Made by a program: the position numbers and the translations under genes. A DNA stretch of 64,000 nt from assembly GCA_964016885.1 (NCBI GenBank), contig OZ024742.1:227230001-227294000 (forward strand), in the 5' to 3' direction. Shown piece after piece: positions 39,037-62,456 of the stretch. This DNA comes from Eledone cirrhosa. Lineage: Eukaryota. Within the stretch, counting starts at the first letter, position 1. Each line of letters opens with the position of its first letter. The notes under the pieces are model-generated. The model worked only from the letters and a program-made list of their open reading frames with translations. It was not told the DNA's origin and did no database searches.

Positions 39037-39093
39037 ATATAACACCACTGACGATGTTGCAGATGTGCAACGAAAGATTTATGTAAATTATGT
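39037..39093 (+). ncRNA. Type I hammerhead ribozyme motif
   Basis: CTGACGA(T), helix II GTTGCA/TGCAAC, GAAA, helix III AG-AT-TT, UUA site (cut after 39081). Helix I is only CA/TG plus distal ATATAA/TTATGT. Confidence 0.65.
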
Positions 39094-39344
39094 AAACTAT
39101 ATATATATATATGTGTTTGTGTCTATATTGTATCTGTATTATTTTTGACCGCCGGTCAGTCAATGGCAACATTGAGGACCGAGTAAGTTAGATCGCAGAT
39201 ATAATAAAAGACAGCGAGAAGCGAAAACCAACCAAACAGTGAGTGTGTTCTGTTATTAATTCTGGCAATATTACGCAAATATGACCCTCCCCAAGTATAA
39301 CAATATCTGTTTCGACACACGATTTCATATAAAAAACCTCGCAA

Positions 39345-39384
<40 letters not shown>

Positions 39385-39856
39385 GTTGGTAAATCAATGA
39401 TAAATATTGATTGCCAGCTAAATTAACTATGGGGATATCAAATATACGTAAGCGAAAACCAGCCCAAACCAAACTGAGCGTGTTTTATTATATATTTCTA
39501 GCAATATTATAACAACATGACCCTCCCCAAACATAACAATATTTATTTCAACACACGATTTCATATCAAAAACCTTGCCAAACAAATTTATCGCCATATA
39601 TATATATATATATATGGCGAATATTTTTGAAGCTTGTTTCTGTCCCCTACGGTATGCTATACTTTCTGTTGTTCTCCTGTCTCACTCGCTTTACGCGTTT
39701 TAATTGTCCTAATAACTTATTTTGGTTATTATTGCACCGAAGTGAGATATATGATTTTTAATGCAATGAAATATCTATGATCTTCGGCAAATCACTGATG
39801 AGGGACTTATTTTATTACATGTTATCCATGTGCTACCTGCAGTATTTTTCTCTATA

Positions 39857-39912
<56 letters not shown>

Positions 39913-39944
39913 GTATATATATATGTATATATGTGTATATATGT

Positions 39945-40548
39945 CAGGTCACCAGTTGGTGCTACTGGTAACATGTATCCCAGTACAACCTGTCTCATGG
40001 TCGGGTCGTTGGCGACTAAACTGGCAACCCCACCAAGGTTTCTTGGTGAGGAGGGTGACTTTGGACATCCTGCAGGACTAAAAACAAAACCTGTCAAAGG
40101 GCAAGGGAGCTCTTAAGCCTCAATAGCCATCCAAAATCACCGGGAGAGATGACCCCTTAGCCTTTGTCAAGGCAGAATTCTAGGAGAAGGAAAACTCTGA
40201 TATAACACCTGCAACCCTGATGGTATCCAATGATGTTGACTTGTTCTTCTTTTTGGTAAATATCATCTTGGTTAAGAGAGTGGGACTGGCTTTGTGCAGT
40301 GCCTTTGCTCACTATAAAAGCTTCACAGCACAGGCATTGCTTTATATCTGGAGATCTCTCTGCACTTGTCATCACATGGTCAATATGATGCACTATGTGT
40401 CAATAATGGTCACAAGTGTAGTCTTTGTACCAGAGTTTTCAAGTCGCTGGCTGGACTAAAAAGTCACATTCGTTCAGCGCATCGGTAGGGGTTCTCCTAC
40501 ATGGATATAAAGCAGTGGCCGTACTCGAAAACGAGTTGGCAGCCACCA
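39945..40548 (+). mobile_element. Internally deleted RTE (BovB-like) element
   Basis: A putative 5' UTR is joined to a C-terminal C2H2-like [20 protein letters not shown] and a short 3' UTR. Confidence 0.6.
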
Positions 40549-40568
40549 TGTGTATATATATATATGTG

Positions 40569-40602
<34 letters not shown>

Positions 40603-40629
40603 TATATAATGTATATATATATATATATG

Positions 40630-40699
<70 letters not shown>

Positions 40700-40867
40700 A
40701 TGTATATATATATAATGTATATATATATAATGTATATATATATAATGTATATATATATATGTATATATATGTATATATATATATATATAATGTATATATA
40801 TATAATGTATATATATATAATGTATATATATATAATGTATATATATATAATGTATATATATATAATG

Positions 40868-40943
<76 letters not shown>

Positions 40944-41699
40944 GTCTATATATATGAAGGAACGATCGACTTTCGTCAAATCGGACCGAGGCAACAATGT
41001 TTCCGTTGGTGTTTCCAATTGCTAATACTATCTATCGGTCGCAACTCCAGGTAGAAGGAGCAACGTGAAATAAAGTGTCTTGCTCAAGGACATAACGCAT
41101 CGCCTGGTCCAGGAATCGAACTCACAACCTTATATGTATGTATGTATATCGTCATCATCACCGCTGTTGAACGTCTATTTTCCCACGCTTGCATGGGTTA
41201 GACTGGTTGTCACGTTATAAGACAATTTCGGTCAAGTGACCATGCCTTGCTCATACAGATATATTTGGAGTTGGTTTCTACGGCTGGATGCCCTTCCTAA
41301 CGTTACAGTGTATACGGGGTACTTTTTCGTGTCACCAACACGACCTAGCACCAGAACACCATACAGAGTGGACTTTGTGTTTTTTTTCTTTTGTGTGGAT
41401 TGCTTATATTTATATTTTTCCTCTACAACTGAACATCAGATGTGATGGTGTCTATAGGTGGGTGGCTGGAGAGGTATATCAGGGGCGAAGAGTGAGGGTT
41501 GGTGTGGGGGTAAAAAAACGCAGGTTTGACATGGGTGAGGTGTGGAGGTATTAAGTTTTGGGAAGGGTAAAGAGCAGAATATGTTTGTTTCATCCTGTGC
41601 ACATGGGAGGTCGTATCGTCTGCTGTAACGCATAATGCCAAAGATTTCGACCTTGTATCATCCCCTTTGTCAGGTTTAATTGGCCAAGATCAGCTTTTA

Positions 41700-41956
41700 T
41701 CACTTCATCCTAAGCTTTCCAGGGTTTTCCTCTTTCCTCGACGTTGAGCGCTCTAGCTGCCATCCCATACCCTCACAATTTCCACTCCTGTAAGTTCTTG
41801 TTACTTTCTGCACAAAAAAACATCGATGACATACAAAACATACATTCTTTGCTTGCCTGCTTGAGATCCCACTAAATCTCTTGTGTACCCAAGGTTTGCA
41901 TTTGGGACATAGGGCGGAATTTCTACCTACTCCTTTCGTACACACTGTGCAAGGCC

Positions 41957-41960
<4 letters not shown>
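41700..41960 (-). pseudogene. RTE fragment with PHD-like finger
   Basis: WPCTVCTKGVGRNSALCPKCKPWVHKRFSGIS..FVCHRC. Confidence 0.75.
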
Positions 41961-41987
<27 letters not shown>

Positions 41988-44123
41988 AGAAAATAAGATA
42001 GTTTTCATTTCGTTGGTAAAATCAAACTTGTGGAGTGAGTATGCTCTGTTAATGAAGAAGTATCTTACCGAATAGATTTCTCGACGTGAATAATTGACTC
42101 CTGCGATAGATTCGTGGGTAATTTCCAGGTTACACTAATTCTTGGAGTACGTATAACTTAATATGTTAGGAGAAACAAGCAAGGCGTGATTAGAAAAAAA
42201 AATTTAATTATACATTTTAACATGTGTTTCATTATCGAGCTACGTTAGAGTATACGAGGGCTATTTAGAGATATTAATATTTCCAATCATTCTCCCGCAA
42301 TACCATACACCTCAACAAATCTTCAGAAAATTAACGCAATTTTTAGAATTTGAGTGATAGTATCGAATGTAAAGAGGGGTGATTGATAAGTTGACCTATG
42401 GGCTTCCAGCAATTTTTGGTGTTACATAAATGTGACATGTCATTGGCTGAGAAATAGTTAATCGCTAGATCAAAGGGAATGATATAAGTGATGGAAGTTA
42501 CTATAGTAAAACAAATAATTAAACAGGCCGTAAATCTCTTTAATATTAGTAGCATCAGAATGACAGTTACAGATAAAGGTGAAACTTAAGTAGTAGATAT
42601 GACGCCACTTGGCTATGTAATAAAACTGGTTATTGGAAAGAGATAAAAGTGATAGAAATTGAGGAATGGAGGTAAAGTGATAGGTCATAAACATGGGTTA
42701 GCTAGGATTATAATTATAAAATGTTTTTAGGTATTAGTGCTTAGATTAGAATATCCTATATTGTATAGCGTTCAGTAATTTCTTTCCTGTCAACATTTCT
42801 AGTACTTCCATCGCACAAAGATCACAATAACTTTCTGTCATGTCTGTAGGGCTGGGCAAATCGTTGAATCAACCACGACAGATTATATCTTATTTTTTCC
42901 ATTTTTTAGTTTCCATATTTTTCAAACCAAAGCGGTAAATGTTCGAAGCTCCGGATCTTTAAACGTATGGGTATGCACATACCATCTTTTCTTTAAAAAG
43001 TTGGATATGGACCCCACATATCTAAATATACAATGGCTTGTAACTTGTAACTCACTGGTACACAATATTCTTACTTATGCATTTAGCCGATGGAGGGCAG
43101 CTATCGGGTTTTCTACAGTTACAATGTACCAGTACATGTGGATTAAAATCTGGTTTTTTTCGTTAAGGGTAGATGTGTTGAAGGGTTGCGATAGAAATAG
43201 CCGCTTGTTGTTGTTGTTGGTGGTGGTTTGGTGTGGTACAGTGGGTTGAGATGAAGATGAAGGTGAGGACGGATTATTACTTCAAATTGAGGTTTGATTA
43301 CTGTTATTCGTGACCGAAGGGGGTCTTTATATATATATATATATATAATTCAACTTTTTTATAAATTCTATTTATTCTTAATGAAATAATCATAGAAAAT
43401 AATAATAACAATAAAACTAAAATTTTATATATAAAAGGTAAAATAATAATTTCATTAAAATAAAATATATAAATCAAGAAAGAAGAGTGACACGGTTTGC
43501 TATACAAAAAAGGTTTTTAATCACATTGCTGACAATTGTTTCTCTGAACTGGTAGGTCTAGAGATCGCTACCCATCTGTTTTCGCGTCAATCGATCACCA
43601 ATACATAGTTGTAACCACTCAATTCATCAGAGCTAGCGAGAATGAAGGGAATACACAGGCATGGCTTCTAAATAAAGTAGTGGCATTCAATCAGAACAAT
43701 AACAACAATACTAACAGTGCTAGCAATAAATTATTTGAAATAATCACAACATCAATCTAAGTAAGACATAGAGTATACTTATGACTTTAGCATGTAAAAC
43801 GAGCTGATATGAGGCAGATGTATGAAATTGACATGTAAAGGTGTCATGGGGTGTATTATATGTATAGCAAACCGTGTCACTCTTCTTTCTTGATTTATCA
43901 TTACTCCAAGTGTAAACTACATAGAAATCACCGTGTACTCGCAACATCACTATGGAAACACCTTGTTGAGTCAAACTTAGCCAAGCGTTGATACCATCCA
44001 CTACTCGGAGTACCCTAACTGGACTACACCTAAGTCGACTACCTATAACAATAATCTGTTATTCCGTATATATATATATATAAATAAAATAAAGATCCGA
44101 AGGCATGGTATAAATTTCCAATC

Positions 44124-44183
<60 letters not shown>

Positions 44184-44238
44184 GATTGGAAATTTATACC
44201 ATGCCTTCAGATCTTTATTTTGATATATATATATATGT

Positions 44239-44516
44239 GGCATACGTCAAAACGGCCGGTCTCTAAAGTGAAACTAATTTTTGACAGTTACGTACGTCAT
44301 TATTTTCAATTTGGATTGTGAATACGTGATATTTTTTTACACACATCCACAAACTTATAGATGTATATACACATGTACAACATATATATGTGTGTATATG
44401 TACACATATACACACATATATATATACAAACACACATATATATATATACAAACACACATATATATATATATATATATACATACACACACACATATATATA
44501 CACACATATACACACC

Positions 44517-44550
<34 letters not shown>

Positions 44551-44694
44551 GAAATCCATACAATTGCGTGTGTCTGCATTATAATCATCTCGAAGTTTAT
44601 ACAGGACTATATATACACAAATCTATTCAGATGAGTGAGTGTACGTAACTGTCACAATTAGTTTCACTTTTCAGACCGGCCGTTTTGACGTATG

Positions 44695-44696
<2 letters not shown>
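44239..44696. mobile_element. MITE with GGCATACGTCAAAACGGCCGGTCT TIRs inside (TA)n
   Basis: About 57-bp inverted termini. Shares the internal TTAAGAAATCCATACAATTGCGTGTGT with 35555-36046. Confidence 0.85.
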
Positions 44697-44782
<86 letters not shown>

Positions 44783-46684
44783 ATAAGAAATGGAGAATCA
44801 GTGGTGCGGCGAATTAAAATTTATTAGACATATTACAAGCGTTTCTCTGGCGACCAGCTTGAGGCACGATCGATGCGATGATCGGACCTGACTCTGAAAT
44901 CGCAAGATCCTCAGATACGTCTGTATCTTTCGAAGCAGAGTTTCCAAATTGTCCAAATTAATCCCGCGGTCTTCTCTCGCCAGCTTGTATCGTGTTCTTG
45001 TTGGTTGAGGAATGGTCAAGAATTGTACACGTCATCGGTATTTCTGATCACTCATGGCCGTTCACTTTTCTCGTTCCATTCACATGTCACCTGTCAATCA
45101 AAGTTGTTTCTTTGAGCGGAATTACTGCTGTAGGAGGTAAGGGGTTGTATGGTTGAAACGCTCGCGCACTGCCGCAGCCGTCTCGGCTTGCAGACGTATC
45201 CATGTTTCGCGCAGGCGTGATACATATGGGCACGTATACACACACAATCACATACACACCCGCAACTGTATTATATACGAAAATCACAGTAAATATTAAA
45301 TGTACAGCGAATACTTAGAAAGAATTTTTTTTTTTAATGGAAAAAACATTTTAAAAAAAATAAAAAAAAAAACACCATCAAAATACCTTAAAAATCGCAT
45401 TTCAAAAAGCACTTTAAACAAAACGCTTGAAAGGGCCTCTCAAAAATTATTTGAAAAGTATTTCTGATAAATATACACACACTGTACTCAGGAAAGCATA
45501 TATACGCGTACTTAAGACGCATATGCTTGGAACAATACATATGGATGCACATATATACAGATGAAAAAACGGAAAATCTACACAAACATATGCGTACACT
45601 TACACAGACATGTACATATATATACATACATACACATGCATACATATATATATATGTATACACATACATACATGTACCCACGCATACACATGCACATGGG
45701 CATGCTTATACATCTCAAAAAGCTCATACTTAATGAATACCTACATATCCACACACACACACGCAACTGTGCACAGGATGCATAAAATATTATATGAGAA
45801 AACATTCGTGAGGCGTTGAACCTAATACATTCATGAGGCCGTATATGCCCGAAAGTGCATGCATAACATACATAAATGCAAGAATTACGTAGCAGCCACA
45901 TACTAATGACAGATAACATGGGGCGTACATATATGAATGGTTGTACGTACATACAATAAAATAAAATACTTGAAAAAGAATGTATACGTGAGAAAGATGC
46001 AAAGAAGGTATCTGTTCACGCCACCCGGATATTATTGGGATGTGCATAAAGTTACATAAAATACTTAAAGACTGTGATGCATAGGGTTATATCAGATACA
46101 GAAGGACTGAAGATCCAAGGGACTGGGTAAGAACCTGCACATCAACCATGCACATGAGACAGATTTCATGACAGGTGGACACAGGGAACCGTCTAGGTAT
46201 ACACAAAAAAGTTATATAAATCGGGAATGTGCAGAATATCCTTTTCGTAACAGTATATATGAAATGTACATGGAATGGATCCATAAATGGAATATACCAG
46301 CGGCTTGTGTTGTAGGCATGTATATGGCAACGGCAGGTAAAGTTAGAATTAACCTCAACATTAATCTTAAGTCCAACATCAAGTCCAACATTAAAGTTGC
46401 AAATTAAAAATTAAAAATCAAGAATTCAAAATTCAAATTCAAATTCAAAACCACACATAAGGTTGTAAACAAAATCAGACTTATATTGAGTCGGCGTCCC
46501 CATGTTGGTGAGACGGTGTTATCCAAGGTACGTAACGAGGTAGGTATCGTTGGATCTGTCGTTGATTTCAGCTTGTTCCGCGGGGCATTCATTGGTATGC
46601 TGTCGCATGTTGTGGTCCCCTGCAGGCGCCCCAACTGGCATCGTCGTACCGGTAGGGCCTTAGTTAGACCCATCCGGTATCACT

Positions 46685-47123
46685 AAAGCGGAAAGTGTGC
46701 ATTTACGTTAGTGTCTGCAGGCCATGATGATTTCAGATTTGAGATTGACTGCGTCGCCCTTTAGTTTTACTATCTCCATAGTCTCGGACAGGCACAACTT
46801 GCACCTCTTCTCGCCAGCCGAGTACGCATTCGCACGCTGGACGATACTCCAGCTGAGGTCAAACGTCGTGCCACTGTCTTTGAGTCCCCATATTAGGTCC
46901 GCCAGTCTGGTGGAGTGTCTGCTGTGCCTGTCCTTGAATTAGTTCTTGTGGTTGTACATACTCGATTTAAAAGTCGTGGATGTTGCCCCGATGTAGGTGT
47001 ACCTATCATTGTGCGTGGTAACCACACATCTGTAGACAACACCCTTTGTCAGGCACATTCCTTGCAGAGGGCACTGTTCACCTACACGACAGTTACATGT
47101 CCGTGCATCCTTTTTGTCAGTCC
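46685..47123 (-). pseudogene. Penelope-like GIY-YIG endonuclease remnant (not in the ORF track)
   Basis: Manual translation: TCNCRVGEQCPLQGMCLTKGVVYRCVV..YIGATSTTFK..YNHKN*F..TRLADLIWGLK..CKLCLSE..N.KSEIIMACRH. Confidence 0.9.
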
Positions 47124-47174
<51 letters not shown>

Positions 47175-47430
47175 TGTATGTATAGTATATTTGGCAATGA
47201 ACCTATGTTTAATTAAAAACATTTAGAAGACCATACGCTAAGCGTATGGTCTTCAAAATGTTTTTAATTAAACATACAGTATATTGCCAAATATACTATA
47301 CATACATTCATGTATACATCGCTATTTCAGAGCACCAATACTAATACCTAATTATTGCTGGACCGACAATCGCTCTGTATAATCAGCTCCTGATTATTAC
47401 TGGAATTCTATAAGAATTCAGCTTCTATAA

Positions 47431-47520
47431 TTTTCAGCGAAAGCAGGAGGCGTGTGGCTCTGATGAACGCCAACCAGCGTGAAACAGACTGTCAGCTTCT
47501 CTCCCTTCTTTCGCCGAAAA
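47431..47520 (+). ncRNA. Type I hammerhead ribozyme (best-formed copy)
   Basis: GGCT-CTGATGA-ACGC(CAACCA)GCGT-GAAA-CAG-A-CT-GTC|AGCT. Helix I extends through GGAG/CTCC and TTTTCaGCGAAAG/CTTTCGCcGAAAA. Cut after 47493. Confidence 0.88.
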
Positions 47521-48720
47521 GAAGTAAATGACATAGTCACTACTTTAAAACTGATAGCGTATGGTCTTCTAAATGTTTTTAATTAAACATACGGTATATG
47601 GCCAAATATACTATACATACATTCATGTATACATCGCTATTTCAGAGCACCAATCCTAATACCATATATATATATATATATATATATTGAATTTCATACA
47701 GTTAACATGTATGTGCGACCTTAGGTTTTGCGGTTCAGTTATGGCCACCACTGTATAGTGGCGGAGGCGTTCTAAAACTGGCCTCTTTCGTTGGGTGCAA
47801 GGACGAAATTTAAAGAAAAACTTACTTTACGAAAAACGCTCATAGTTCGTGAAAAGTTCACCTCAAGAACAAAGGAGGGAGACCCCCACCCCCGATAAAA
47901 ACCCTAGATTATAATAATACATCTCTATATGTATAGAGGGATGCTTGCAATTTCTGTTCAATCGATGTGTATGTATAGTATGTGCATGACTTCAGTTGTA
48001 AGGTTGTTGTCTTTTTAAAAAGATCCGTTAAAACACGGAAAAAATGTTGTATATTGTAAAATAACCCTCTTTAAAAAGCTAAGAGAGATAATTCTCCTTG
48101 AGAAAGTTTGGAGAAATAGACGAACGGCTTTTCTTTCGTATCCATATATGAAGGGTGTGAATAGATATGTGTGTGTGCGTTATCTAGTATGCAATGTAAT
48201 TTTGTAAAAGTTGAATCTCTCTCTCTCTCTTTTTTTTTCTTTCTAAAAATCAGAAATGTGAAATGTATGTGTTATCTAGTGTGTAATGTAATTTTGTAAA
48301 TCTTAAGACTTTTTTTTTTTTCCAATTTTCTAAAAAATTTCCTAAAAATATTAAGACCTGTAAACTAAAAAATATGGGGGTCTTTGTGATATAGTGTATC
48401 TAATATTGCATGTAGGAGTTAGGGGATATGTTATAAGTGCATATCTGTGCATATATAGGTGACAGAAAAATAGGGTTATGGAGGATTTAGCAGGTCTGAT
48501 GAGGGGCATCTTGGCGGGTGTGGGTTTCCAGTTAGACAGGGTGTGTTTTTGTACATATAAGCTCGCGTATCTGACGAGATATCGAAAAAGAGTCGGGCAC
48601 CGTCACCTTGATTGTACTTTGAGCTGATCGATATAGAAACAATTGTAATATGCAAATAAAGTTTGTGCGTATGCTGCAACACTGACTTCGATTCTTTTAA
48701 ATAAATATATATATATATAA

Positions 48721-49324: not shown

Positions 49325-49381
49325 ACACAGACGCAGACACACATAGACACATATAGACACATATAGACACACACGCACACA

Positions 49382-49417
<36 letters not shown>

Positions 49418-49418
<1 letters not shown>

Positions 49419-49850: not shown

Positions 49851-49976
49851 GTATGTAAACTGCCATGCTATATTATTATAATGGATGTCAACCCACTGTG
49901 CGTCAATATATACATATGTTTCTATATGTCTCTTGTGTTGGAAAGGAGGTCAAGTATGTAAAAAATCATTGAAAAA

Positions 49977-50025
49977 TTGCTCCGAAGACTCCAAACCTCG
50001 GTTTGGAAGAAACAATTGTAAGCGA
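49977..50025 (+). ncRNA. Type I hammerhead motif with U4C core mutation (probably inactive)
   Basis: TTGCT-CCGAAGA-cTCCAAACC(TC)GGTTTGGAa-GAAA-CAATTG-TA|AGCGA. Confidence 0.7.
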
Positions 50026-50459
50026 ATAAATGGTTTAAACAGAACTTTGATTCATGTAATTTCTATATAACTGCTCTGTAGAACAACTGATGTTGTTACA
50101 TTGAGCTATCTATCTTACTGGTAATAAGGTAGTAATAAATTACTGCCTTTCACTATTTAGGGTTTAAAATATATATAACTATAAAAGGTTTTAGTATATA
50201 CATAACCATAAATAGTATCCTTAATACTATATATATATATATATACACAGATAAATCCACCAATTAATGGTAGGGTCTAAACCGTATGAAGAACTCAATG
50301 TAATCTGTATGTAGATGTCGTGAAGCAAAGTTTAAAATACAAAGTTTTCAACGATATAATTCATTGGATACAGAGTCAAAAATAGAAATATTAAAACAAT
50401 GAAATTAAACAAAAAAACGTTGTTTTTTTTGTGTGTGTGTGTGTGTATGTATATAATTT

Positions 50460-50495
<36 letters not shown>

Positions 50496-50777: not shown

Positions 50778-50848
50778 TATTTTATTATGCGCATTTCAAA
50801 AACAAACATCATCATGCAATAATATTTGTGTTTTCATCAGATAAAACA
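50778..50848 (-). ncRNA. Type I hammerhead ribozyme (paralogue of 56160-56230)
   Basis: Minus strand: GTTTTAT-CTGATGA-AAACACAAAT..GTTTGTTTTT-GAAA-TGCGCA-TA|ATAAAAT. Confidence 0.78.
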
Positions 50849-50957: not shown

Positions 50958-51000
<43 letters not shown>

Positions 51001-51099: not shown

Positions 51100-51149
<50 letters not shown>

Positions 51150-51262
51150 AAAGTTTTATTTAAATTGTTGGGATACAACAAGCAAATATTTTTATAACTG
51201 ATATAAAGCACTCGACAAATATTTGGAGTAATAAATTGAAACTATATTTATAAAACCATATT

Positions 51263-51327
51263 TATTTCATTATATATATTTCAAGGATACCAAGTTACAT
51301 TATGGTATGCCTTCATCAGACAAAATA
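51263..51327 (-). ncRNA. Type I hammerhead ribozyme motif
   Basis: Minus strand: TATTTTGT-CTGATGA-AGGcATACCA..TGGTATCCTt-GAAA-TATATA-TA|ATGAAATA. Confidence 0.7.
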
Positions 51328-53568
51328 CAATATATAACAGTTTTATAAATAGACATTGACGTACCCCTTGAAAAATTGACCGTTGCTTTTGGAGGCCATC
51401 AGGATAGTGATTTGTTTACTTTAGTAAGTCATAGTGTTAAGAGTAAGTAAAAAGATGGAGAGAGAGAGAGAAACGTGGAGAAAAGAAAGGGAGAGATAGA
51501 TAAAGAAAAAGAAGAAATCAAAAAGAAAAGAGAACAGAGGAAAAATAACGGGAAGATATCAAACCATCAGACAGAGAAAAAATCCAGAGAGATATATAGA
51601 GATAGAGAGAGGGGGGAGAGAACGAAAGCCTTAAGTTATGTCATATTAAGTTGAGTTAACAGTTGGGATGAAAAGCATAAATAAAATTAGAAATATTAAT
51701 ATTCATGAATGGAATATAGATATATAATATGAGAAATTACACATTGTTTAATTATGATTAGATATTTAGTTTAAAATTGAGATCAATATATTAAAAATTG
51801 GAATTTAAACATTATAAAATATATATATATATATTGCTAGAGAGATTATCTATTGCATATTACATACACATAGGCAAAGGTACATATATATATATATATA
51901 CACACTCACTCAGAAAATACACATTATATCTACTCCCGCATATAATATATATATATACAAAGCATAAATGATTTTTTATTTATTGCCATACATTCCCTGT
52001 GTTATTAATTGAAAATTAAAAGTTTTTAGTATATATATATAAATATATAGGATTAACTTTCATGCATTTATGGCTGTTAAGTTATGCATATCTGCAATCA
52101 AAAACTGCATGTGTAAGCCTGTACATTCACATTCATAATTCTTAGCTATACATGAATAGATATGTGTGTGCATCTTCAATTGGTATACACGCGTCACTCA
52201 TGCATATATACAGACAGACATATAATCATAAAAAAACATATAACACATGTATATGTATGTCAACACACACATATAGATACATTAGCCGTACATAGATATA
52301 CGTATACATCAACATATAACATAGTACAGTTGAGTATATAAAATACAAAAGGATTATAATTTGGAAATGTAATTATATCAATATAACTTAAAAGGCAAAC
52401 GAATTCTACAAATATCAAAATACTAAAATATCCCAAAATATTATAGAATATTTTAAGTTAAAATAATATGTTTAATATATTTAGTATAGAAATTAATCTT
52501 ACGTATATTTTAATCAAGATATTGGAAGGACAAACTTTTAAAAATTATGAGAAGCTATCAGAATAAAAAATAAATCTAATAAAAATTATGAGAAGCTATC
52601 AGAATAAAAACAAATCTAATAAAAACAAATCTAATAAAAATAAAAAATAAAATGAATCTAATAAAAAAATAAATAAAATGAATCTAATAAAAAATAAAAT
52701 ATTATATCAATATAACTTAAAAACAAGGATTCTACAGATATCAAAATATTAAAAAGTTTAAAAATAAAAATAAAAATAAAAATAAAAATAAAAATAAAAA
52801 TAAAAATAAAAATAAAAAAAATTTTTTTTTAAATTTAAAAAGTTTTTTTTAAATTTAAAAAAAATAAAAAAAAAATAAAAAATAAAAAATAAAAAAAAAA
52901 TAAAATTAAAAAAATAATTTTTTTTAAATTTTTTAAATTCTTTTTAAATTTTTAAATATATTTAAAATTTTTTTTATGTGTTTGTATGTACGTGTGTATA
53001 TACGTATGATTGTGTGTATGTATGTATGTATGTATATGTATGTGTGTATGGCTATGTATGTGAATGTGTATGCATATATATATATATTTCTATTTCTATA
53101 TATATATGTGTATATATATATGTGTGTGGTTGTATATATGTATGTGTATGTATGGATATGTTGATATTTTTGTGTGTATGTATGTATGTGTATATGTATG
53201 TGTGTATATATATATACACATATATATGTGTATATGTGTGTGTGTATGTATATATATAAATATATATTTCGTTTCTGAATTTGTTTAGCAAGATTCTTTA
53301 TCTGAAATCGTGTGTTGAAACCGATATTGTTATACTTTGGGAGGGTCATGTTGCCAATAAGAAACACACGCACCAGTTGCTTTCACTTCAATTTATTATA
53401 TATTTATAAATTTATAAATTTACAAATTTACAAACTTATAAATTTCTGGTTGGTTGGTTGGTTGGTTCCACAACCAGATAGTTGTTTATATATAGTCATA
53501 GTCCTTTCGTCACACACTCTGTAGGATAGAAGAAAGGAAAGGCACAGAAACAAAGGAAAGGAATCCCC

Positions 53569-53613
53569 AGTCACTGAAGAGGTCACAGAGTGTGTGACGA
53601 AAGGACTATGACT
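53569..53613 (+). ncRNA. Minimal type I hammerhead ribozyme
   Basis: AGTCA-CTGAAGA(G)-GTCACA(GAGTG)TGTGAC-GAAA-G(GA)C-TA|TGACT. Confidence 0.78.
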
Positions 53614-54032
53614 ATATATAAACAACTATCTGGTTGTGGAACCAACCAACCAACCAACCAGAAATTTATAAGTTTGTAAATTTGTAAATTTATAAATTTA
53701 TAAATATATAATAAATTGAAGTGAAAGCAACTGGTGCGTGTGTTTCTTATTGGCAACATGACCCTCCCAAAGTATAACAATATATATATATATATATATG
53801 TGTGTGTATGTATATAATCGTGTGTTTGTGTGTGTTTGCATGTGTGTTTTTATTTTTTTTCCTTTCCTTCTTCCTTCTTCAGCCTCACTTTCATATAGAT
53901 TGCATTTTTGTTTTTTAAAATCCAATTCAATAAATAGACCAGGATTTTTTCATTCTGATGATTGAAAGCAACATTTTTTGCTTTTAAGAAACCACTGGTA
54001 AATGGAATAATTGCCTTATGTTGTTTATTACA

Positions 54033-54097
<65 letters not shown>

Positions 54098-54331
54098 CAC
54101 ATGTTATGTACCTGTTTTATCACTTGCATAAGTGTCTATTTCGATACTTTAATCTGATTGGTTAAAAATAGCAGGAAATCATATTTCATCATTCAGTAAA
54201 GAGAACATAAAGTTAGCACATGTAAATATATCCACTTTATATTTTGAGAATATTTAGTTAATGATTAAATAATCACTCCTGCCTCCAATATAAAGATGTT
54301 TATAACTATAGTTAGATGTGACTAATTATTT

Positions 54332-54485
54332 AAGGTGCGGGCATGATTGTGTTGTTAAGAAGCTCATTTTGCAGCCACGCAGTTTCAGTTTCAGTCCTGC
54401 AGTGTGGCACCTCGGACAAGTGTCTGCTACTATAGCCTTGGGTTCATCAATATCTTCAGTGAAATTTGGTAGGTAGAAACTGTGT
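54332..54485 (+). mobile_element. CORE-type tRNA SINE (diverged)
   Basis: tRNA-like head followed by GGCACCTCGGACAAGTGTC. Related minus-strand remnants near 13385-13530 and 63870-63960. Confidence 0.6.
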
Positions 54486-54514
54486 ATATATATATGTATG
54501 TACACACACACACA

Positions 54515-54563
<49 letters not shown>

Positions 54564-54611
54564 ACACTGAATAAATATATTAGTTCAACGCTTGAAATAG
54601 CAGGAATAGAG

Positions 54612-54647
54612 TCTTAACGTTTCGGACGCTAGTCCTTCATCAAAAGA
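54612..54647 (-). ncRNA. Minimal hammerhead variant (UUGAUGA core, helix III ACGU)
   Basis: Minus strand: TCTT-TTGATGA(A)-GGAC(TAGC)GTCC-GAAA-CG-TT|AAGA. Confidence 0.65.
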
Positions 54648-54788
54648 TAGAGTTAGAAATAGAAGATAAATAGAAAGATAAAGAGTGAGACGAGGAAGAA
54701 ACGGGGAAAAGGGTAAGAAAAAAGGGGCAAAAATCACACATGTGTATTCAGTCAGCCATTTCGTTATTTGTAGTTATATATATGTATA

Positions 54789-55289
54789 CAGGGTGACCCC
54801 AAAAAAACAGAACTCATAAAAATGTATTAAATTCTACAAAGGTCCAGCAAATTTCTTGAAATTTGCTGGACTTAAACTTCAGTCTGTATACGATCATTTC
54901 CCAAAGTTTCAGTTATCTTGGTCGCTTTGCATAAAAGTCATGTTCTTTCCAATATGGTTTTGTGACACAATCGCAAACAATCCAGACTTCATGTTTGGTT
55001 GTCTGACGAAGCGCACTTTCTGCTGTCAGGATATGTAAACAGCAAAAATAATGTTTATTGGAGTACAGCCTCACCGGAGGATGTGTTACAGAGGCCGTTA
55101 CACTCAACAAAGTGCACAGCATGGGTAGTAATCGCTAAACATGACATCATCGGCCCATATTGGAGCATATTTTGGAAAGAACATGACTTCGTACACAGAC
55201 TGAAGTTTAAGTCCAGCAAATTTCAAGAAATTTGCTGTACCTTTGTAGAATTTAATAACATTTTTATGAGTTCTGTTTTTTTGGTGACC

Positions 55290-55292
<3 letters not shown>
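54789..55292 (+). mobile_element. Internally deleted Tc1/mariner (rosa/maT-like) DNA transposon
   Basis: About 105-bp TIRs starting CAGGGT, with TA flanks. Transposase remnant WLSDEAHFLLSGYVNSKN..LHS.K.TAW..IIGPY. Confidence 0.9.
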
Positions 55293-55341
<49 letters not shown>

Positions 55342-55637
55342 GTTTCTACTTTAGGCACAAGGCCAGCAATTACCCAGTGCATTACTGGTACTTTATTTTA
55401 TCGACTCCGTAAGGATGAAAGGCAAAGTCAACCTCGGCGGGATTTGAACTCAGATCGTAAAGGGACGTAACTATGCTGGAAAGCATGGCATCCGACCCTC
55501 TACCGGTACTGCCAATCCACCGCCCACATATATATATATATATATATATATCGGATAAGAAGCACTCTACAGTTTGTAGGACTGGAGTATACATAATATA
55601 TAAGATCAAAAGATGGTTAAATGAGTTCCATGTATTC

Positions 55638-55790
55638 TTTCCATCGCACATATTATTAAACCCTTAAATATTATTCTTAATACATATTAACATTTTCTTT
55701 TCATCGCACACATTATTAAACCCTTAAATATTATTCTTAATACATATTAACAATTTCTTTTCATCGCACACATTATTAAACCCTTCAATA
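55638..55790. repeat. 60-bp tandem repeat, about 2.5 copies
   Basis: CATCGCACA[T/C]ATTATTAAACCCTT recurs in register on three consecutive 60-nt lines. Confidence 0.85.
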
Positions 55791-56159
55791 TACAAACCTT
55801 AACTTTACATTATTTTTCTCTTCGATAATTTTCAAATTCTTTTAATTTATACATTATCTTCCAACGGTTTTTAAACCTCTCTATGTAAAACAATATATCT
55901 TTCTCAGTTATAAAAGCTATCTCTTTCTCTCTATCACCCATCTCTCCTCCTATCTCATCCTTCCTCATTATACTCCACCCCCTCCAATTTTTACTCTCAT
56001 CTCCTCCTCTTTTTACTCTCATCTCCTCCTCTTTTTCATCCTCTCCCTCAAAAAAAAATTTTTTCCCCAATATCACACATCAATCTAAAACTACTTTTCA
56101 TATGTTGATTTAAAACTGCACTATCCACAAGTGTTTTTAACCTTCATATCATGTCTTCC

Positions 56160-56230
56160 TATTTTATCTGATGAAAACACAAATGTTATTGCATGATCAT
56201 ATTTGTTTTTGAAATGCGCATAATAAAATA
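56160..56230 (+). ncRNA. Type I hammerhead ribozyme
   Basis: TATTTTAT-CTGATGA-AAACACAAAT..ATTTGTTTTT-GAAA-TGCGCA-TA|ATAAAATA. 8-bp helix I; cut after 56222. Confidence 0.8.
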
Positions 56231-56260
56231 CATGGAACTCATTTAACCATCTTTTGATCT

Positions 56261-56302
<42 letters not shown>

Positions 56303-56448
56303 TATATATATATAGTATTTACGTATCGAGAAAGAGAGAAAAAGGAGGGATAGGTGATACATATAGTTATTTGCCAAGTAGCGTATGCCAAAGGTGCTCG
56401 ATACTAGTGCCGGCAGTATTAAATATTCGAAGTGTTAATATTTAGTGG

Positions 56449-57065
56449 GCTAGAGAGTTAGCAGACTACATCACATCACTAAAGGACTTAAACATCAGCT
56501 TCTCCACGCACTGGGAGATTGTCGGCAGGGCTGCACCGTACAACTTCAAGAGGAAATGCGATCTTTGCCTCATGGAGCTCTACCACATCATAACTGCACC
56601 CCACGAGCTCATCAACAGCAGAGCTGAAACAGCGATATGTTGTACACATCGCTTAAAAATATCCTTCTTTTGATGGGTTAAGAATGAAGAGTGAAATAGT
56701 ACACTGGATCTCCCTGCAACAAGTCTTAACACCCCGGCGGGCAGGCGCAGCAAAATAACACCCAGAAAACAATCCTTGCATACCAGACCCAGCCTCAAAA
56801 AAAAAAAAAAAAAAAATTATCCGGGAAAGACTGCCCTAACACCGGCCGGAGTTACCTCCCTTGACCTGCTGCAAAATCAAAACAAGATATTTTTGCGAGC
56901 AATGAATCTTGATGTAGATTTAACCCCCAAAACTCTTTCCGAACTATATAAGGAACACTTGTGATTATTTATGCCCTTGAGAAGCCCAACTGGGCGAAAC
57001 GTACGTAGGTGATATTTTAAATAAACATGTTTTAACGGTCTATTCTCCGATGTTTTACTTTCCCA
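56449..57065 (+). mobile_element. Penelope-like 3' end with degenerate hammerhead (56974-57010)
   Basis: ELADYITSLK..WEIVGRAAPY..CDLCLME..LINSRAE..CTHR, then CC-TTGAGAA-GCCC(AACT)GGGC-GAAA-CGTACG-TA|GG. Confidence 0.8.
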
Positions 57066-57497
57066 CGTATATATATATATAATATATATATATAATATAT
57101 ATATATAATATATATATATAATATATATATATAATATATATATATATAATATATATATATAATATATATATAATATATATATATATATAATATATATATA
57201 ATATATATATATATAAACTTAAGAAAACAAACAAAGGACAAAACAACGATCAACAAAGCAAATTGAAAAGCAATTTTTTAAGGGAAAACCTTAAATATTT
57301 TCTCTCTTTACGCTGCTTATATCTTCTCTGTTTGTGTGTGGTGTAATTCCTTTATTGAGTAACTAATTATGCAATACAAACCTGATAATGTTGCCAGGAT
57401 TTTACTTAACCTGGGCATTGAAATATATATGTTTTTGCACAATAAAACTTTAAGGGAACTTCACCAGTCATGACGGCTCCCTGTCATTTTAATCAAA

Positions 57498-57556
<59 letters not shown>

Positions 57557-57563
<7 letters not shown>

Positions 57564-58032
57564 TATGTACACGTATAGTAGTATGTATATATATATATAT
57601 ACATACATGCACACATATATATATGTACGTATGGATTCACCGAACATTTATTATAATGTTCGGTGTGTTTGTAAACAAACATCCCGTATTAAGCCGTAGT
57701 GTCCAGCAACCATCGTTGCTCGTTTGTTCAACACTGACAAAGGAACGCTGTACTAGTTTCAAGCTTATTAGCTATCGTCAGCAACATATACCTTCCTGCC
57801 AGATTGTTGAACGTATATACTTACCTTATGCATATTAACGGCTGAGTAGCCCAATTTGCATATCGAGTGGGTTAATCGGCCGGGTGCACCGAAAACGACA
57901 AACACACCGAGCATTATAATAAATGTTCGGTGAATCCATACGTACATATATATATGTGTGCATGTATGTATATATATATACATACTACTGTACGTCTGTA
58001 TACATATATGTATGTACGTGTACATACTTATA
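57557..58032. repeat. Inverted-repeat element (about 115-135-bp arms) next to (TA)n
   Basis: GTACGTATGGATTCACCGAACATTTATTATAATGTTCGGTGTGTTTGT and its reverse complement at about 57899-57945, with matching outer microsatellite-like arms. Confidence 0.8.
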
Positions 58033-58577
58033 TTTAAGTAACAGCCGTACTAAGAGTGGGAAATGAAATTTCGTTTCATTTTTTTCCGTTTATATATATA
58101 TATATATTAAGTAAGTAAGTTAATTTTTCTAAAAAAATTTTTTAAAGAAATTTTCTTATTTTACGTCTTATATATTATTGTTCTGCATCCTCCTGCATTG
58201 AACCACCTAGGTACTATGACATAACCTATGTATTTGCTGGTATTAGCGTACATCTGTGCGCTTATGTTAGTAGATATATAAAATTATCTATATTTATCTC
58301 CAAATCACTGATTTGTCGAGCAAACCTGCCAAAACCACTTCTAAAAATTTTTTTGGGGGGTGTTAGTAGGCGTCTGTCATCTTACCATCCCATTCCTACT
58401 GACTAGCCTCTGTGTCACGTGATTGATTCTTTAGAATCGGCCATATGATCAGTGGCAGTGAGAATTTTCAGTGGCTGGAATCCAGTCCTCGATAGCTGTT
58501 CTAGTTGCCGAATTATTATTATTTTTATATGAGTCCCCAGTGTCCGCGCATCGCCTGGAGACTCGGCTGAGAATGAC

Positions 58578-58657
58578 CTCCCTGATGACGCAATGAAATT
58601 CTCAACAGTTCATTACGTAACTGTCTTTATCCCATTGCAGAAACTAATTAGTTGGAG
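58578..58657 (+). ncRNA. Type I hammerhead ribozyme with long loop 2
   Basis: CTCC-CTGATGA-cGCAATG..CATTGCa-GAAA-CTAATTAG-TT|GGAG; cut after 58653. Confidence 0.8.
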
Positions 58658-58834
58658 TGAAAATTTAAGTAAGTTAATTTTTCTAAAAAAATTTTTTTAA
58701 AGAAATTTTCTTATTTTACGTCTTATATATTATTGTTCTGCATCCTCCTGCATTGAACCACCTAGGTACTATGACATAACCTGTGTATTTGCTGGCATTA
58801 GCGTACATCTGTGCGCTTATGTTAGTAGATATAT

Positions 58835-58902
<68 letters not shown>

Positions 58903-59342
58903 ATTGTAACGTCCAGTTATTGTAGGTTCACCAGAGTGAGCACTCGACGCGTAGTTTCCAGTAAATAAAGAGGTGTAGGACTAAACAGAGTGTAATAAGA
59001 AGAAGGAGGACGATTTGATATGTCTTCATTACGTTTATTGAGTAGAGACGCGCGTTTCGTTATTACTTAGCTCAAGGTTCGATCTGTATCGCTCTTGCCC
59101 GATTCTGGTATCAAAAGCTCGTCGGACTTTTGTTGTGATAATGACAGACATATATATATATATACATTCATTTAGATTTGTTGGTTCACCACTGGATAGA
59201 ACTGGTCATTCCGTATAGTCAACCTTGATGTAATATTAGGGAGAGCACTCGTCTTCGTTTGTGTTGTTGGTGATGCAAGTACGGAGTTAATTATTATAAA
59301 ATAACACGAGGCTGGACTGGTGTAATTCCTTAAAGGTTTATT

Positions 59343-59400
59343 ATACTATGAATATTTCAATGACCGGGTTCAGTATGAATCCGGTGACATCATCAGGTAT
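59343..59400 (-). ncRNA. Type I hammerhead motif (slightly degenerate)
   Basis: Minus strand: ATAC-CTGATGA-TGtcACCGGATTCA(TAC)TGAAcCCGGTCAtt-GAAA-T(ATTC)A-TA|GTAT. Confidence 0.6.
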
Positions 59401-60299
59401 TCGAAATTTAACAAAGGAATATAAAAGATAATAATCATGTGCTTTTTTTTTTACTCAAGTTTTATTCAGTTTTTTAAAGAAGGAAGTAAAATTTCATGAA
59501 AGTCTGGCCCTGCCTGGACTGATGTTTTCCTGTACAAAATTGGGAGGAGTACGTCCTGCCTGAGGAAGGGGTCCCATGAGGTTGAGAGGCTGACACAGCA
59601 GATGTTGCTGGCTGTTCTTTGTTACAATGCTTTTACAATCTTGTCTGCAGAGAGCAACTGAGATACACTGCCAAGCCAAGAGTCTAGAGTTTCATCCCTC
59701 TCTCTTTCCCTTCTCGCATTTTCATTTTCAGGGGATTAGCAAAGTCATTAAAGTATTGGACAAATGCTTAGCAGTATTTGTTCTGAGTTTTTTGTGTTCT
59801 GAGTTCAAATACCACCAAAGTCAACTTTACATCAACCTTTTATCCTTCCAGAATCGATGAAATAAAGTAACAGTAAAGAACTCTAGTTGATATAATCGAC
59901 TTGTCCTTCTTCCTAAATTATTGGCCTTGTGCCTCAGTTAGAAATCAATGTTTTTTTTCTTTCTTCATCCAATTTTTTCTTTCTTCTCTCTTCCTGTTAT
60001 TTTAATACTCTTTTTTATAAATACTTTTATTATTGCATACATCTGTTTACTAATATTATATATTTCTGACTAACTAAACATTACATTACCATGTTCCTAC
60101 TATTTATAGTGTCTTGTAATAAATATTAAACCAACCAGCCAACCAACCAGCCAGCCAGCCAACTAACCAACGAACCAACCAGCCAGTCAGTCAGCCAACC
60201 AACCAACCAACTACCTAACTACTCAGTAGTTCCACCAGACCACTCCTGTTATATTCCTAGATATATTTAGCAAACCAACCATACAGTTCCCAGTTCCAT

Positions 60300-60715
60300 T
60301 TCCACCACAATCACCATCTCCACTATTAACACCATCACCACCAAAAACAACACAATCACCACCACCACCACCACCGTCACTATTACTAACAACCAGCTAC
60401 CACCACCACCACTACCACTACCATCATCACCTACATACCACCATCATCACCATCATTACCACCATCACCATCACCACTACAATCACCACCACCATCATCC
60501 ACACCATCACAACCACAACCACCACAATCATCACCATCACCACTACAACCATCACCATCACCACAACCACTACCACCATCATCATCACCACCACCACCAC
60601 CATTACCACCACCATCATCAGCACCACCACAATCATCACCACCATCATCAACACCATTACAACCAGCTGCCACCATCACCACGATCCCCACCACCACCAC
60701 CATCACCACCACCAT
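60300..60715. repeat. Degenerate (CAC/CAT)n trinucleotide tract
   Basis: Simple repeat. Confidence 0.95.
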
Positions 60716-60844
60716 TCCTCCTGTTTATTGAACCATTTACCAAGAGGAGAGAAAATGGTTGACTGATGATCACTGGTGACTGATTACTGATGACTAATTC
60801 TGACTCATTTCAACCATATTTACTCACCTACATACACATACATA

Positions 60845-60911
<67 letters not shown>

Positions 60912-61155
60912 TCTCTCTTATACACACGCACGCATACACACATGCATAGAACTCACTCTCTTCTCTCACTCACACAGGCGCACTTACTCTCCCTGCCCCC
61001 TCTCTCTCCCCTCTCTCTTTCTCTCTCTCCTACAACATATGACTCAGTTGGGAAATCAATTCCAACATGAATTAGTGTACTGATGGTAAACACTTACACT
61101 TACACACACACACTTACACACATACATACACATACGTAGATACATACACGCACGC

Positions 61156-61237
<82 letters not shown>

Positions 61238-61513
61238 CATTTAACGTGTTCCCTGCTCACAAAGGTTAGATGGGTTTCACAGACCAAGTCGGTACTCAAG
61301 CGGAGTTACTGACCGCTTCTCAGATGTGCTGTGTGTGTGGTGGTGGGGGCAGGATATCATTCACCTACATTTCCACACTCTACCGAGTTTGTCATGTATT
61401 TGACACAGAAGAAAAGTCCTCTCGACCCTTTGTTTGGCGGGTTTTCTACAGCTGGTTGTCTTTCCTGTCACCAACCACTTTACAGATGTACTGGGTGTGA
61501 TTATCGTGTAGGT

Positions 61514-61701
61514 CAGTGGTTCCCAAAGTGGGTTCCGCGGAACCCAAAGTGGGTTCCACAAAGGAGTGTCTAGGGTTCCATGAAAAAAGGTAGAGGAGTA
61601 TATTTATATTATGACCATATAACAGTGTTAGACTTTTGGGTTCCCCCAAAAGTTTCTGAACCAAAAAGAGTTCTGCGTTTGAAAAGGTTTGGGAAACCCT
61701 G
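61514..61701. mobile_element. hAT (Charlie-like) MITE
   Basis: Termini CAGTGGTTCCCAAA and TTTGGGAAACCCTG; 8-bp TSD GTGTAGGT/CTGTAGGT (7 of 8 match). Confidence 0.85.
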
Positions 61702-62112
61702 CTGTAGGTCACCAACACGAGGAAGGATGTCGTGTCTTTGAAACAGCTGATAAGTCCTTCTGACTTTTATTTGGCAAGTTTTCTACAGTAGGATGCTCTG
61801 CCTATCGTCAATAACTTTACAAGGTGTACTGGGTGCATTCTTCGTGGCACCAGCACTAGAGAGCTTGCCACTCATAGTCTCAACTGAAGAGCCCTCCCTA
61901 CCCTACGGGGTTGGGAGAAGGAAGATAAAGTATTAGGTGTGCATGACAAATGTGGTGGGATTCGACAGGGTGATGAGTTGGAGGGATTCATTTCAACAAG
62001 GATTCTAAAGACGGGTGTAGTGATATACACACTCACATACCATCACAATGACGCACACACTCATGCACAAGAACACAGACATAACCACACACACACACAC
62101 ACGCACACACAC

Positions 62113-62300
62113 TAGACCTGCCAACCTCTAAAAACCTAAACGGGGAGTACCTTGAAAAACATGCCCCAAAACGGGGAGAAATGAGGCTAAATAGGGAGAT
62201 TTGCCCAAGCTATACCCATTTTCACAAGAGAAGACATCTCTCACCCACCCCAAAGTGGGTGGGAGATCCCACCGTCGGACGGGGAGAGTTGACAGGTCTG
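62113..62300. mobile_element. hAT-like MITE
   Basis: TIRs TAGACCTGCCAAC and GTTGACAGGTCTG, in (CA)n. Confidence 0.75.
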
Positions 62301-62394
62301 CACACAACTTAAAATACATACACACATTCTATTTATACCAGTATGTATGTGTGGACTCATAACTCATGGTAAAGTCGTATGAACACTGTAGTAA

Positions 62395-62456
62395 CATACG
62401 ACGTTTCTTGGGAATTTTGTTTAAGCCTGGCAGAGACCATTCCCTCTTCAGATCTG
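62395..62456 (-). ncRNA. Degenerate type I hammerhead motif
   Basis: Minus strand: CAGAT-CTGAAGA-GGGAAT..ATTCCC(AA)-GAAA-CG-TC|GTATG. Two extra nucleotides and one helix I mismatch. Confidence 0.5.

Follow-up and report, generated by a model that had tools for sequence, protein, structure and literature searches.

Penelope-like elements (PLEs) form an established source of minimal type I hammerhead ribozymes in animals, where truncated copies yield many diverse motifs, among them a variant with a U3-A8 core (Cervera and de la Pena 2014, PMC4209133), and the Hydra clade, PLEs that have hammerheads and insert into (TA)n, has been defined (Craig et al. 2021, PMC8557442). Tails and inverted pseudo-long terminal repeats (pseudo-LTRs) of PLEs are described in PMC3846280, and PLE 3' ends correspond to start sites of the reverse transcriptase (RT), the tail being the stretch between two starts and the template in vitro being uncleaved RNA (Frangieh et al. 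2024, PMC11167929). PLEs have been proposed as the movers of retrozymes, from co-occurrence or pseudo-LTR similarity (Cervera and de la Pena 2020, PMC7229834; Li et al. 2026, bioRxiv 10.64898/2026.07.22.740005), and active Penelope families have been counted in Octopus vulgaris in a report whose accessible text does not mention ribozymes (PMC13282606). As far as the accessible text of PMC11167929, PMC7229834 and bioRxiv 10.64898/2026.07.22.740005 goes, the choice of internal start site by PLE RTs and the enzyme that moves animal retrozymes are open questions in the field. The locus described here is a 64,000-nucleotide stretch of the Eledone cirrhosa genome (the window; contig OZ024742.1, positions 227,230,001 to 227,294,000), part of a 379-Mb contig in a 3.0-Gb genome. 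Its dense group of hammerheads is probably made up of PLE insertions nested in TA microsatellites, and a bulged stem-loop behind many of these hammerheads likely sets the start of reverse transcription by Hydra-clade enzymes.

A descriptor of the minimal type I hammerhead, with helices I and II of at least 4 bp (strict) or at least 3 bp (relaxed), gave 10 strict and 12 relaxed matches in the window, all within 44.8–58.7 kb. Forty local dinucleotide shuffles gave means of 0.05 strict (maximum 1) and 0.275 relaxed matches (maximum 2), the reversed sequence gave 0 and nine decoy cores gave 0–1. The hammerhead motifs are thus real and above chance, which bears out an earlier reading of the same DNA made from its letters alone (the sequence-only reading). 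The type I topology proposed there was likewise confirmed by the core, C3-U4-G5-A6-N7-G8-A9, G12-A13-A14-A15.1 and U16.1-H17, and by the order of helices I–III, with weak cases at 39048, 59125 and 59396 and a failure at 62395 (−).

Eleven of the 12 sites listed in that reading stand; the other, 62395–62456 (−), is a chance match inside an old unrelated repeat, with a YUGANGA core in 3 of 19 homologues and its helices lost. The strict rule is passed by seven of the 12, with cores at 47460 (+), 49982 (+), 50840 (−), 53574 (+), 54643 (−), 56168 (+) and 58582 (+), positions that also name the families below, and 51319 (−) passes the relaxed rule only. The motif at 39048 (+) passes only with a 2-bp helix I, which is the same in 20 of 20 copies; 59396 (−) matches no descriptor, owing to a weak helix II base, and its core is kept in 19 of 20 copies. 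The site at 56974 (+), previously called degenerate, is instead a U3-A8 core variant (core 56977), identical in 4 of 4 copies. The descriptor added four hammerheads absent from the earlier list, 44914 (−), 48571 (+), 53955 (+) and 57781 (−), and there are two further candidates, 43630 (−) and 59125 (−).

The TA-microsatellite setting also noted earlier is general: a (TA)6+ run lies no more than 283 nt downstream of 17 of 17 accepted sites, and none lies at the rejected 62395 (−). Helix III is self-complementary at all or all but 1–2 positions in 13 of the 13 accepted sites listed, and a monomer hairpin is not possible in it. A BLAST search supplied 41 relatives of 51319; in these, both sides have changed at 6 of the 10 helix II pairs, and helix covariation reached 49 cells against 17.1 expected (0 of 500 shuffles as high). 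Rfam scans returned no hammerhead in the window at E values up to 5, and nothing at gathering score in loci L262, L286 and L475.

The 50–60-kb bin of the window holds 7 strict and 8 relaxed motifs and 16 neighbouring bins hold 0–2, whereas a background sample of 36 fixed 10-kb pieces (360 kb) held 13 strict and 27 relaxed hammerheads (1.0 after shuffling), at most 3 per 10 kb. Scaled up, the sample gives about 1.1–2.2 x 10^5 hammerhead motifs per genome; up to 120,000 are named for axolotl in the accessible text of PMC7229834. The U3-A8 core matched 6 times in the same 360 kb against 0.7 after shuffling, in several further families, so that counting the canonical core gives a lower bound for the genome. 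The genomic DNA collected contains 395 distinct motifs in 40 sequence families. Hammerheads of other families occur in the flanks of nine families at 0.8–3.0 per 10 kb, against 0 beside a decoy repeat and 0.75 in the background. The cluster that had been called dense is therefore a local high, a hot spot arising from nesting in TA runs, in a genome that is full of such motifs, and is not unique.

The genome was searched with 13 motif families of the window, and flanks were examined for 12 of them, in the best 15–30 copies each of 95–2,568 candidates. Most hammerheads in the window are the 3' pseudo-LTR ends of 5'-truncated coding PLEs of Hydra-clade and Neptune/Nematis type. Seven of the 12 sites noted earlier (39048, 49982, 50840, 51319, 53574, 56168 and 56977) belong to families whose longer copies code for RT/GIY-YIG, and 44914 is an eighth such hammerhead. 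One open reading frame (ORF) that holds RT and, at its C-terminus, GIY-YIG lies between pseudo-LTRs in loci L265, L286, L287, L562 and L109, the Pfam RVT_1 and GIY-YIG matches in L109 falling below curated cutoffs. The anatomy is that of endonuclease-positive (EN+) PLEs, with 5' truncation, an inverted 5' piece and an optional 3' tail. Among 120 listed relatives of one PLE protein, the sole animal that a source names is Argonauta hians, in 3 rows at 36–41% identity.

Two of the families are young and of Neptune/Nematis type. In the 53574 family, 15 of 30 copies extend upstream into RT/GIY-YIG and the common 3' end is the ORF start; its window copy is a pseudo-LTR stub with a 199-bp inverted copy (53266–53790, +) and a minimal hammerhead at 53569–53613 (+). 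The 39048 family reaches RT/GIY-YIG in 10 of 20 copies, and its full-length copy L265 spans 4,132 bp from pseudo-LTR to pseudo-LTR, with a 1,217-aa open frame; the window holds a 3' pseudo-LTR stub with an inverted 5' piece (38926–39348, +) and a minimal hammerhead with a 2-bp helix I (39046–39083, +). The view that most sites sit in short non-coding units does not survive these counts, the units being mainly 5'-truncated copies of coding PLEs. Both families are assigned to the Neptune/Nematis type because a CX4CxxC linker before GIY-YIG, present in L265 and L109, fits the mark given in PMC8557442.

The 51319 family includes full-length 4.2-kb copies and intact 742-aa frames with RWR, DKT and CxCX5C (L562), and is placed in the Hydra clade because these match the clade marks of PMC8557442; in a Hydra-protein search with a protein of this family, 50 of 70 rows had no internal stop. 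Its window member is a 5'-truncated PLE with a long 3' untranslated region (UTR) and a pseudo-LTR with a tail (51146–52850, −), the covarying hammerhead lying at 51263–51327 (−). In the shared family of 56168 and 50840, 4 of 25 copies are collinear with an endonuclease; it is represented in the window by a pseudo-LTR stub with an inverted tail (55560–56262, +; hammerhead 56160–56230, +) and by a second stub with a hammerhead at 50778–50848 (−). The hammerhead 49982 (49977–50025, +) has a CCGAAGA core and lies in a Hydra-type pseudo-LTR stub. One copy of its family, L263, is continuous with a CxCX5C endonuclease, so that a fixed 5' end at −1205, considered for this family, was rejected, L263 continuing past it. 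Locus L106, with two 49982-type hammerheads 4.4 kb apart, was also rejected as a full-length element, there being no PLE frame between them.

The CxCX5C linker also recurs in the endonucleases of the 56168, 49982 and 44914-linked pieces and of the 36.7-kb piece. GIY-YIG pieces lie in the window at 36.3–37.2 kb (+), 46.6–47.1 kb (−) and 56.4–56.7 kb (+). The first belongs to a Hydra-type PLE piece (36158–37640, +) with an RT C-terminus, the linker and GIY-YIG (E value 0.0029, below the cutoff), and with a short inverted piece at its 5' end that holds half a hammerhead. The second is a broken GIY-YIG in a Hydra-type element with a long 3' UTR and pseudo-LTR (44780–47126, −), flanked by TA runs on either side, collinear with L452 for about 1.6 kb and ending in hammerhead 44914 (44826–44922, −). 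The third, a C-terminal endonuclease piece of a Hydra-type PLE with 3' UTR and pseudo-LTR (56340–57068, +), is directly followed by hammerhead 56977 (56975–57009, +). The sequence-only reading had cast these pieces (36158, 46685 and 56449) as the mobilisers: all three exist and the proposed link to PLEs holds in that the 46.6-kb and 56.4-kb pieces are the parents of 44914 (−) and 56977 (+), but all are 5'-truncated and broken and cannot themselves move anything.

Three families of the window consist of ORF-less units. The 58582 unit measures 554–558 bp, with a spacing of 534–558 bp in 7 of 20 loci and one 16-copy array; the 57781 unit measures 420–426 bp and is tandem in 5 of 20 loci at 420–442-bp spacing; the 47460 unit measures 317 bp, with a 315-bp terminal repeat and segments that span two cores, none exceeding two units. 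Their window copies are a non-LTR retrozyme insertion of 1.3 units in (TA)n (58108–58840, +; hammerhead 58578–58657, +, with a 10-nt palindromic helix III), a retrozyme-like insertion with an inverted piece (57560–58085, −; hammerhead 57745–57787, −) and a retrozyme-like insertion of 1.3 units with an inverted 5' piece in (TA)n (47162–47665, +; hammerhead 47456–47497, +). Insertions of all three have TA targets, scattered 5' ends and inverted pieces (14 of 20 loci for 58582, 10 of 25 for 47460 and 9 of 20 for 57781), 58582 and 47460 each have two fixed 3' ends, and TA microhomology is found at every fixed 3' end. Segments longer than one unit make up 38 of 84 and 34 of 84 in two retrozyme segment sets, and would need a multimeric or circular template. 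The predicted folds of retrozyme units gave z scores of −6.2 and −4.5. At the DNA level, 58582, 57781 and 47460 fit the definition of non-LTR retrozymes with PLE insertion anatomy, and their hammerheads look like the minimal PLE type. Whole-unit local alignment of retrozymes against coding pseudo-LTRs scored no higher than shuffles except twice, both times with a reference that runs into TA repeat, and the link between retrozymes and PLEs is carried by a short stem-loop motif. The 16-copy array (L262) has a higher-order spacing of the 557/558/558/554 type, and behind it lie (TA)n and part of a Hydra-type endonuclease.

That motif was found by aligning families at their fixed 3' ends. It consists of a helix, R-CUC-Y / R-GAG-Y, whose 3' strand has a bulge of 2 nt (UH), and of a variable stem-loop cap; usually present in two copies, it begins within a few bases of the ends. 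With instances chosen by a positional rule that requires no pairing, 14 of 16 own-genome families gave one, and variable positions were paired in 58 of 70 cases against 40.0 after shuffling (maximum 55 in 20,000). Of the TA-followed 3' ends, 65 of 66 in 51319 and 79 of 86 in 58582 lie no more than 12 nt before a stem-loop, and their modal distances to the stem are 0–4 nt, TA microhomology counted in; in four families whose reference holds only the first stem-loop the fractions are 24/44, 8/19, 27/67 and 10/21, most of the rest being at the second end. In the window the motif lies behind the first fixed 3' end in the 49982 family (50073–50106, +) and the 51319 family (51210–51229, −), and in the inverted tail of the 56168 insertion (55564–55588, −). 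Both stem-loops are present in retrozyme 58582, spaced as in Hydra-type PLEs: behind its first fixed 3' end (58735–58758, +; second copy 58180–58203) the stem-loop is covariant, with a compensatory UUC/GAA change, and another lies behind its second (58297–58321, +). A pair count on 42 aligned instances was matched by 0 of 500 shuffles, a figure that is partly circular, the instances having been chosen for outer pairing. Further stem-loop matches beside TA runs, at 17081–17110 (−), 17432–17457 (+) and 35370–35401 (+), are probably tails of other Hydra-type families.

An independent set comprised 77 Hydra-like loci from metagenomes, with 40 distinct hammerheads followed by at least 150 nt of non-microsatellite sequence. 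Behind these, 36 of 40 have the stem-loop motif and 23 have two, against 0.76 expected. Inner pairs, which played no part in selection, were formed in 83 of 118 cases against 48.7 after shuffling, and the Y-R pair is C-G in 36 instances and U-A in 23. Among loci with both pseudo-LTRs, the 3' copy ends 0–3 nt before the motif in 5, and 6 further pairs were uninformative.

These observations suggest the following course of events. The PLE endonuclease would nick (TA)n, and the freed TA 3' end would pair, on the RNA, with a short run of UA-rich bases immediately 5' of the stem-loop; the Hydra-clade protein would bind the bulged stem-loop, and reverse transcription would begin at the paired site, two stem-loops giving two starts and hence an optional tail. 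The RT may then pass back through an uncleaved or re-ligated hammerhead and mostly stop early or switch template, so that what remains are short stubs that bear inverted pieces. Hydra-clade proteins would copy retrozyme 58582 in trans, and the two stem-loops that it shares with Hydra-type PLEs would tie it to these enzymes; 47460 and 57781, which lack the signal, would use another PLE clade. New insertions would enter TA runs beside older ones and so build a local cluster, and the palindromic helix III would fit cleavage as dimers. A broader version, that Hydra-clade PLEs across animals position both RT starts by the doubled stem-loop and that the 555-nt retrozyme has kept both copies to hijack their enzymes, is one that we favour by a small margin over its negation.

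Several points weigh against this account. The stem-loop was recognised post hoc, is weakly stable taken alone (z scores of −0.9 to −2.8 for four window instances), and is scored by its covariance model at E values of only 0.004–0.5 in real instances. The positional rule found none in 47460 and 57781, and pairing is poor in the three families that have one instance only, 54643, 53574 and 39048. In the metagenomes, the 3' copy in locus L526 ends after the motif, and the 59 instances are not phylogenetically independent. The names Hydra and Neptune/Nematis follow from motifs rather than from a tree, and the link of the 49982 family to an ORF comes from a single copy. Helix covariation, clear in the 51319 set, was not significant in a 49982-like set of 25 relatives (139 of 500 shuffles). 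Cleavage, expression and mobilisation of the window's hammerhead units are predictions, and 5' ends within 3 nt of the cleavage site number 4 against 1.8 expected in one retrozyme set and 1 against 3.1 in the other.

This last result bears on the alternative that survives best, that the hammerheads are mostly inert for transposition, being folds or binding sites kept by selection, with cleavage in vivo a rare event. It has a sizeable though minority chance and is compatible with the classification given above. Insertions that hold a whole hammerhead were all copied across the cleavage site, and the 5' ends leave no sharp footprint there: 2 of 84 segments in each of the two sets begin within 4 nt of it, and 0 of 30 unbiased 49982 segments begin at the site itself. 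The young 39048 family has only a 2-bp helix I, cleavage was dispensable in vitro (PMC11167929) and one of nine dimers was cleaved in the preprint (10.64898/2026.07.22.740005). Conversely, the 40 sequence families retain the core, NUH and a palindromic helix III, with compensatory changes in helix II, and 58582 5' ends are enriched 2.5-fold in the 25 nt after the site (18 against 7.2), although also 1.9-fold before it (11 against 5.8), with no significant enrichment around the site in 47460.

A second possibility, which we consider unlikely, is that the stem-loop does another job, such as translation control, RNA packaging or protein-assisted folding of the hammerhead, and that the ends are set by UA-rich microhomology alone. 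The TA microhomology at every fixed end agrees with it, as does the placing of the second stem-loop copy in L562 and many metagenome loci, where the start codon follows it by 25–40 nt, and a hammerhead with protein assistance is reported in PMC11167929. Against this, both ends, about 90–120 nt apart, each precede a stem-loop copy in families of unrelated sequence, and an ORF-less retrozyme keeps both copies, one with its compensatory change. A start signal for the Hydra-clade RT remains the preferred role.

The sequence-only reading's idea, that non-autonomous retro-RNAs with ribozymes, in separate families, account for most of the sites, has little left in its favour and is refuted as a majority explanation. 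It is right for 47460, 57781 and 58582, two of which (47460 and 58582) were on its list and are ORF-less tandem units, but 7 of its 12 sites are ends of coding PLEs and 1 of the 12 is false. No ORF of their own was found in the copies examined of 59396, 53955, 54643 and 48571, which agrees with the idea, whereas two 53955 copies that lie 4.7 kb apart on the same strand may be the pseudo-LTRs of a full element. The spread of retrozyme-like units as DNA satellites derived from a pseudo-LTR, by unequal crossover or local duplication and not through their own RNA, is very improbable: the 16-copy array with its higher-order pattern points to DNA-level amplification at L262, and the preprint 10.64898/2026.07.22.740005 discusses a satellite route, but dispersed copies on many chromosomes have two fixed ends followed by (TA)n, their 5' ends are scattered, inverted 5' pieces occur, and many segments exceed one unit.

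The remaining hammerheads of the window are as follows. Hammerhead 48571 (48565–48653, +) has a branched helix II and is related to the 44914 family, 53955 (53948–54007, +) lies in a short stub, and 54643 (54612–54647, −) belongs to an older family (about 90% identity) with no ORF found upstream. A candidate with a long helix II domain lies at 43528–43633 (−), and helix I is not formed in the window copy of candidate 59125 (59047–59125, −), which is followed by a bulged stem-loop (58942–58991). The short ORF-less 59396 family (hammerhead-like motif 59343–59400, −; window 59150–59440; loci L167–L185) shares the same 5' start about 105–115 nt upstream of the core in about 10 of 20 copies, one copy being longer; these may be solo pseudo-LTRs copied from the 5' ends of transcripts, or else a non-autonomous element of small size. 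Outside the window, an abundant short hammerhead family, ORF-less in the copies seen (L124, L180, L018 and L286), has GGTCACAGCC after its core and carries the bulged stem-loop and long fold-back 5' ends.

Both Neptune/Nematis-type pseudo-LTRs contain AAAATGGCG just upstream of the hammerhead (window 38995–39012; L001, about 60–110 nt upstream of the 53574-type core), to which the 53574 family adds GCGCATGCGC. We take these to resemble YY1 and NRF1 sites. Several short stubs begin near AAAATGGCG/GCGCATGCGC (−50 to −90), as though copying had run back to the point where transcription begins.

Elsewhere, the window contains a 35-bp unit repeated about 160 times in an array (2530–8087), degenerate CCTAAC-type repeats (20599–21074 and 24419–25575) flanking an LTR-retrotransposon-like element whose ends are repeated and whose frames resemble integrase and RNase H, judged by eye (21275–24400), and several LINE-like fragments with endonuclease and RT frames on both strands, also by eye (26692–33900). 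An element of about 550 bp with 76-bp inverted ends and a transposase-like remnant is inserted in TA at 54765–55318.

The hammerhead cluster, the truncated PLE ends and the TA targets are of an already known kind. New here are three retrozyme families with PLE insertion anatomy and a candidate clade-wide start signal common to coding PLEs and one retrozyme in a genome with many stop-free Hydra ORFs. If the signal is real, a short clade-wide motif would make both start-site choice and retrozyme movement testable, would serve as a search key for non-autonomous partners in other animals and, at the sequence level, would name the autonomous partner of an animal retrozyme; it would also define a minimal cis signal for a telomerase-related RT. 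In the accessible literature no earlier description of the doubled stem-loop or of cephalopod retrozymes was found, although subscription papers and further supplements could hold one.

Compared with published systems, as far as their accessible text goes, the hammerheads resemble the PLE motifs of PMC4209133 in being type I, with an extra base after A9, a palindromic short helix III and the U3-A8 variant, and in occurring as many families per genome, mostly as single motifs, with opposite-strand pairs 100–700 bp apart. They differ in that several families have a long or branched helix II (50–80 nt) and in number, 1–2 x 10^5 being estimated here against 2,000–9,000 for other animals in that study. 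The coding elements share with the Hydra clade of PMC8557442 the RW(K/R) and DKT motifs, the CxCX5C linker, the C-terminal GIY-YIG, the pseudo-LTR hammerhead and (TA)n targets, but at about 4.2 kb, with 1–1.8-kb 3' UTRs, they exceed the generally <3 kb given for that clade; in the text available there, File S1 included, no mention of a doubled stem-loop at 3' ends was found. As in Poseidon of the anole (PMC11167929), two fixed starts downstream of the hammerhead give an optional tail at AT-rich targets, and the template would again be uncleaved RNA. In Poseidon an AC-rich stem-loop within a single element's ORF contains the starts, whereas those described here lie just 5' of a clade-conserved bulged stem-loop, upstream of the ORF, that a retrozyme shares. 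Like animal non-LTR retrozymes, the units are ORF-less, tandem, AT-rich and well folded, with one type I hammerhead each, and lie beside PLEs; unlike them, they have minimal PLE-type hammerheads and mostly form dispersed insertions of 0.3–2 units with PLE-type tails and inversions. Whereas PMC7229834 and 10.64898/2026.07.22.740005 argued from co-occurrence and pseudo-LTR similarity, retrozyme 58582 has a candidate signal for recognition by one named PLE clade.

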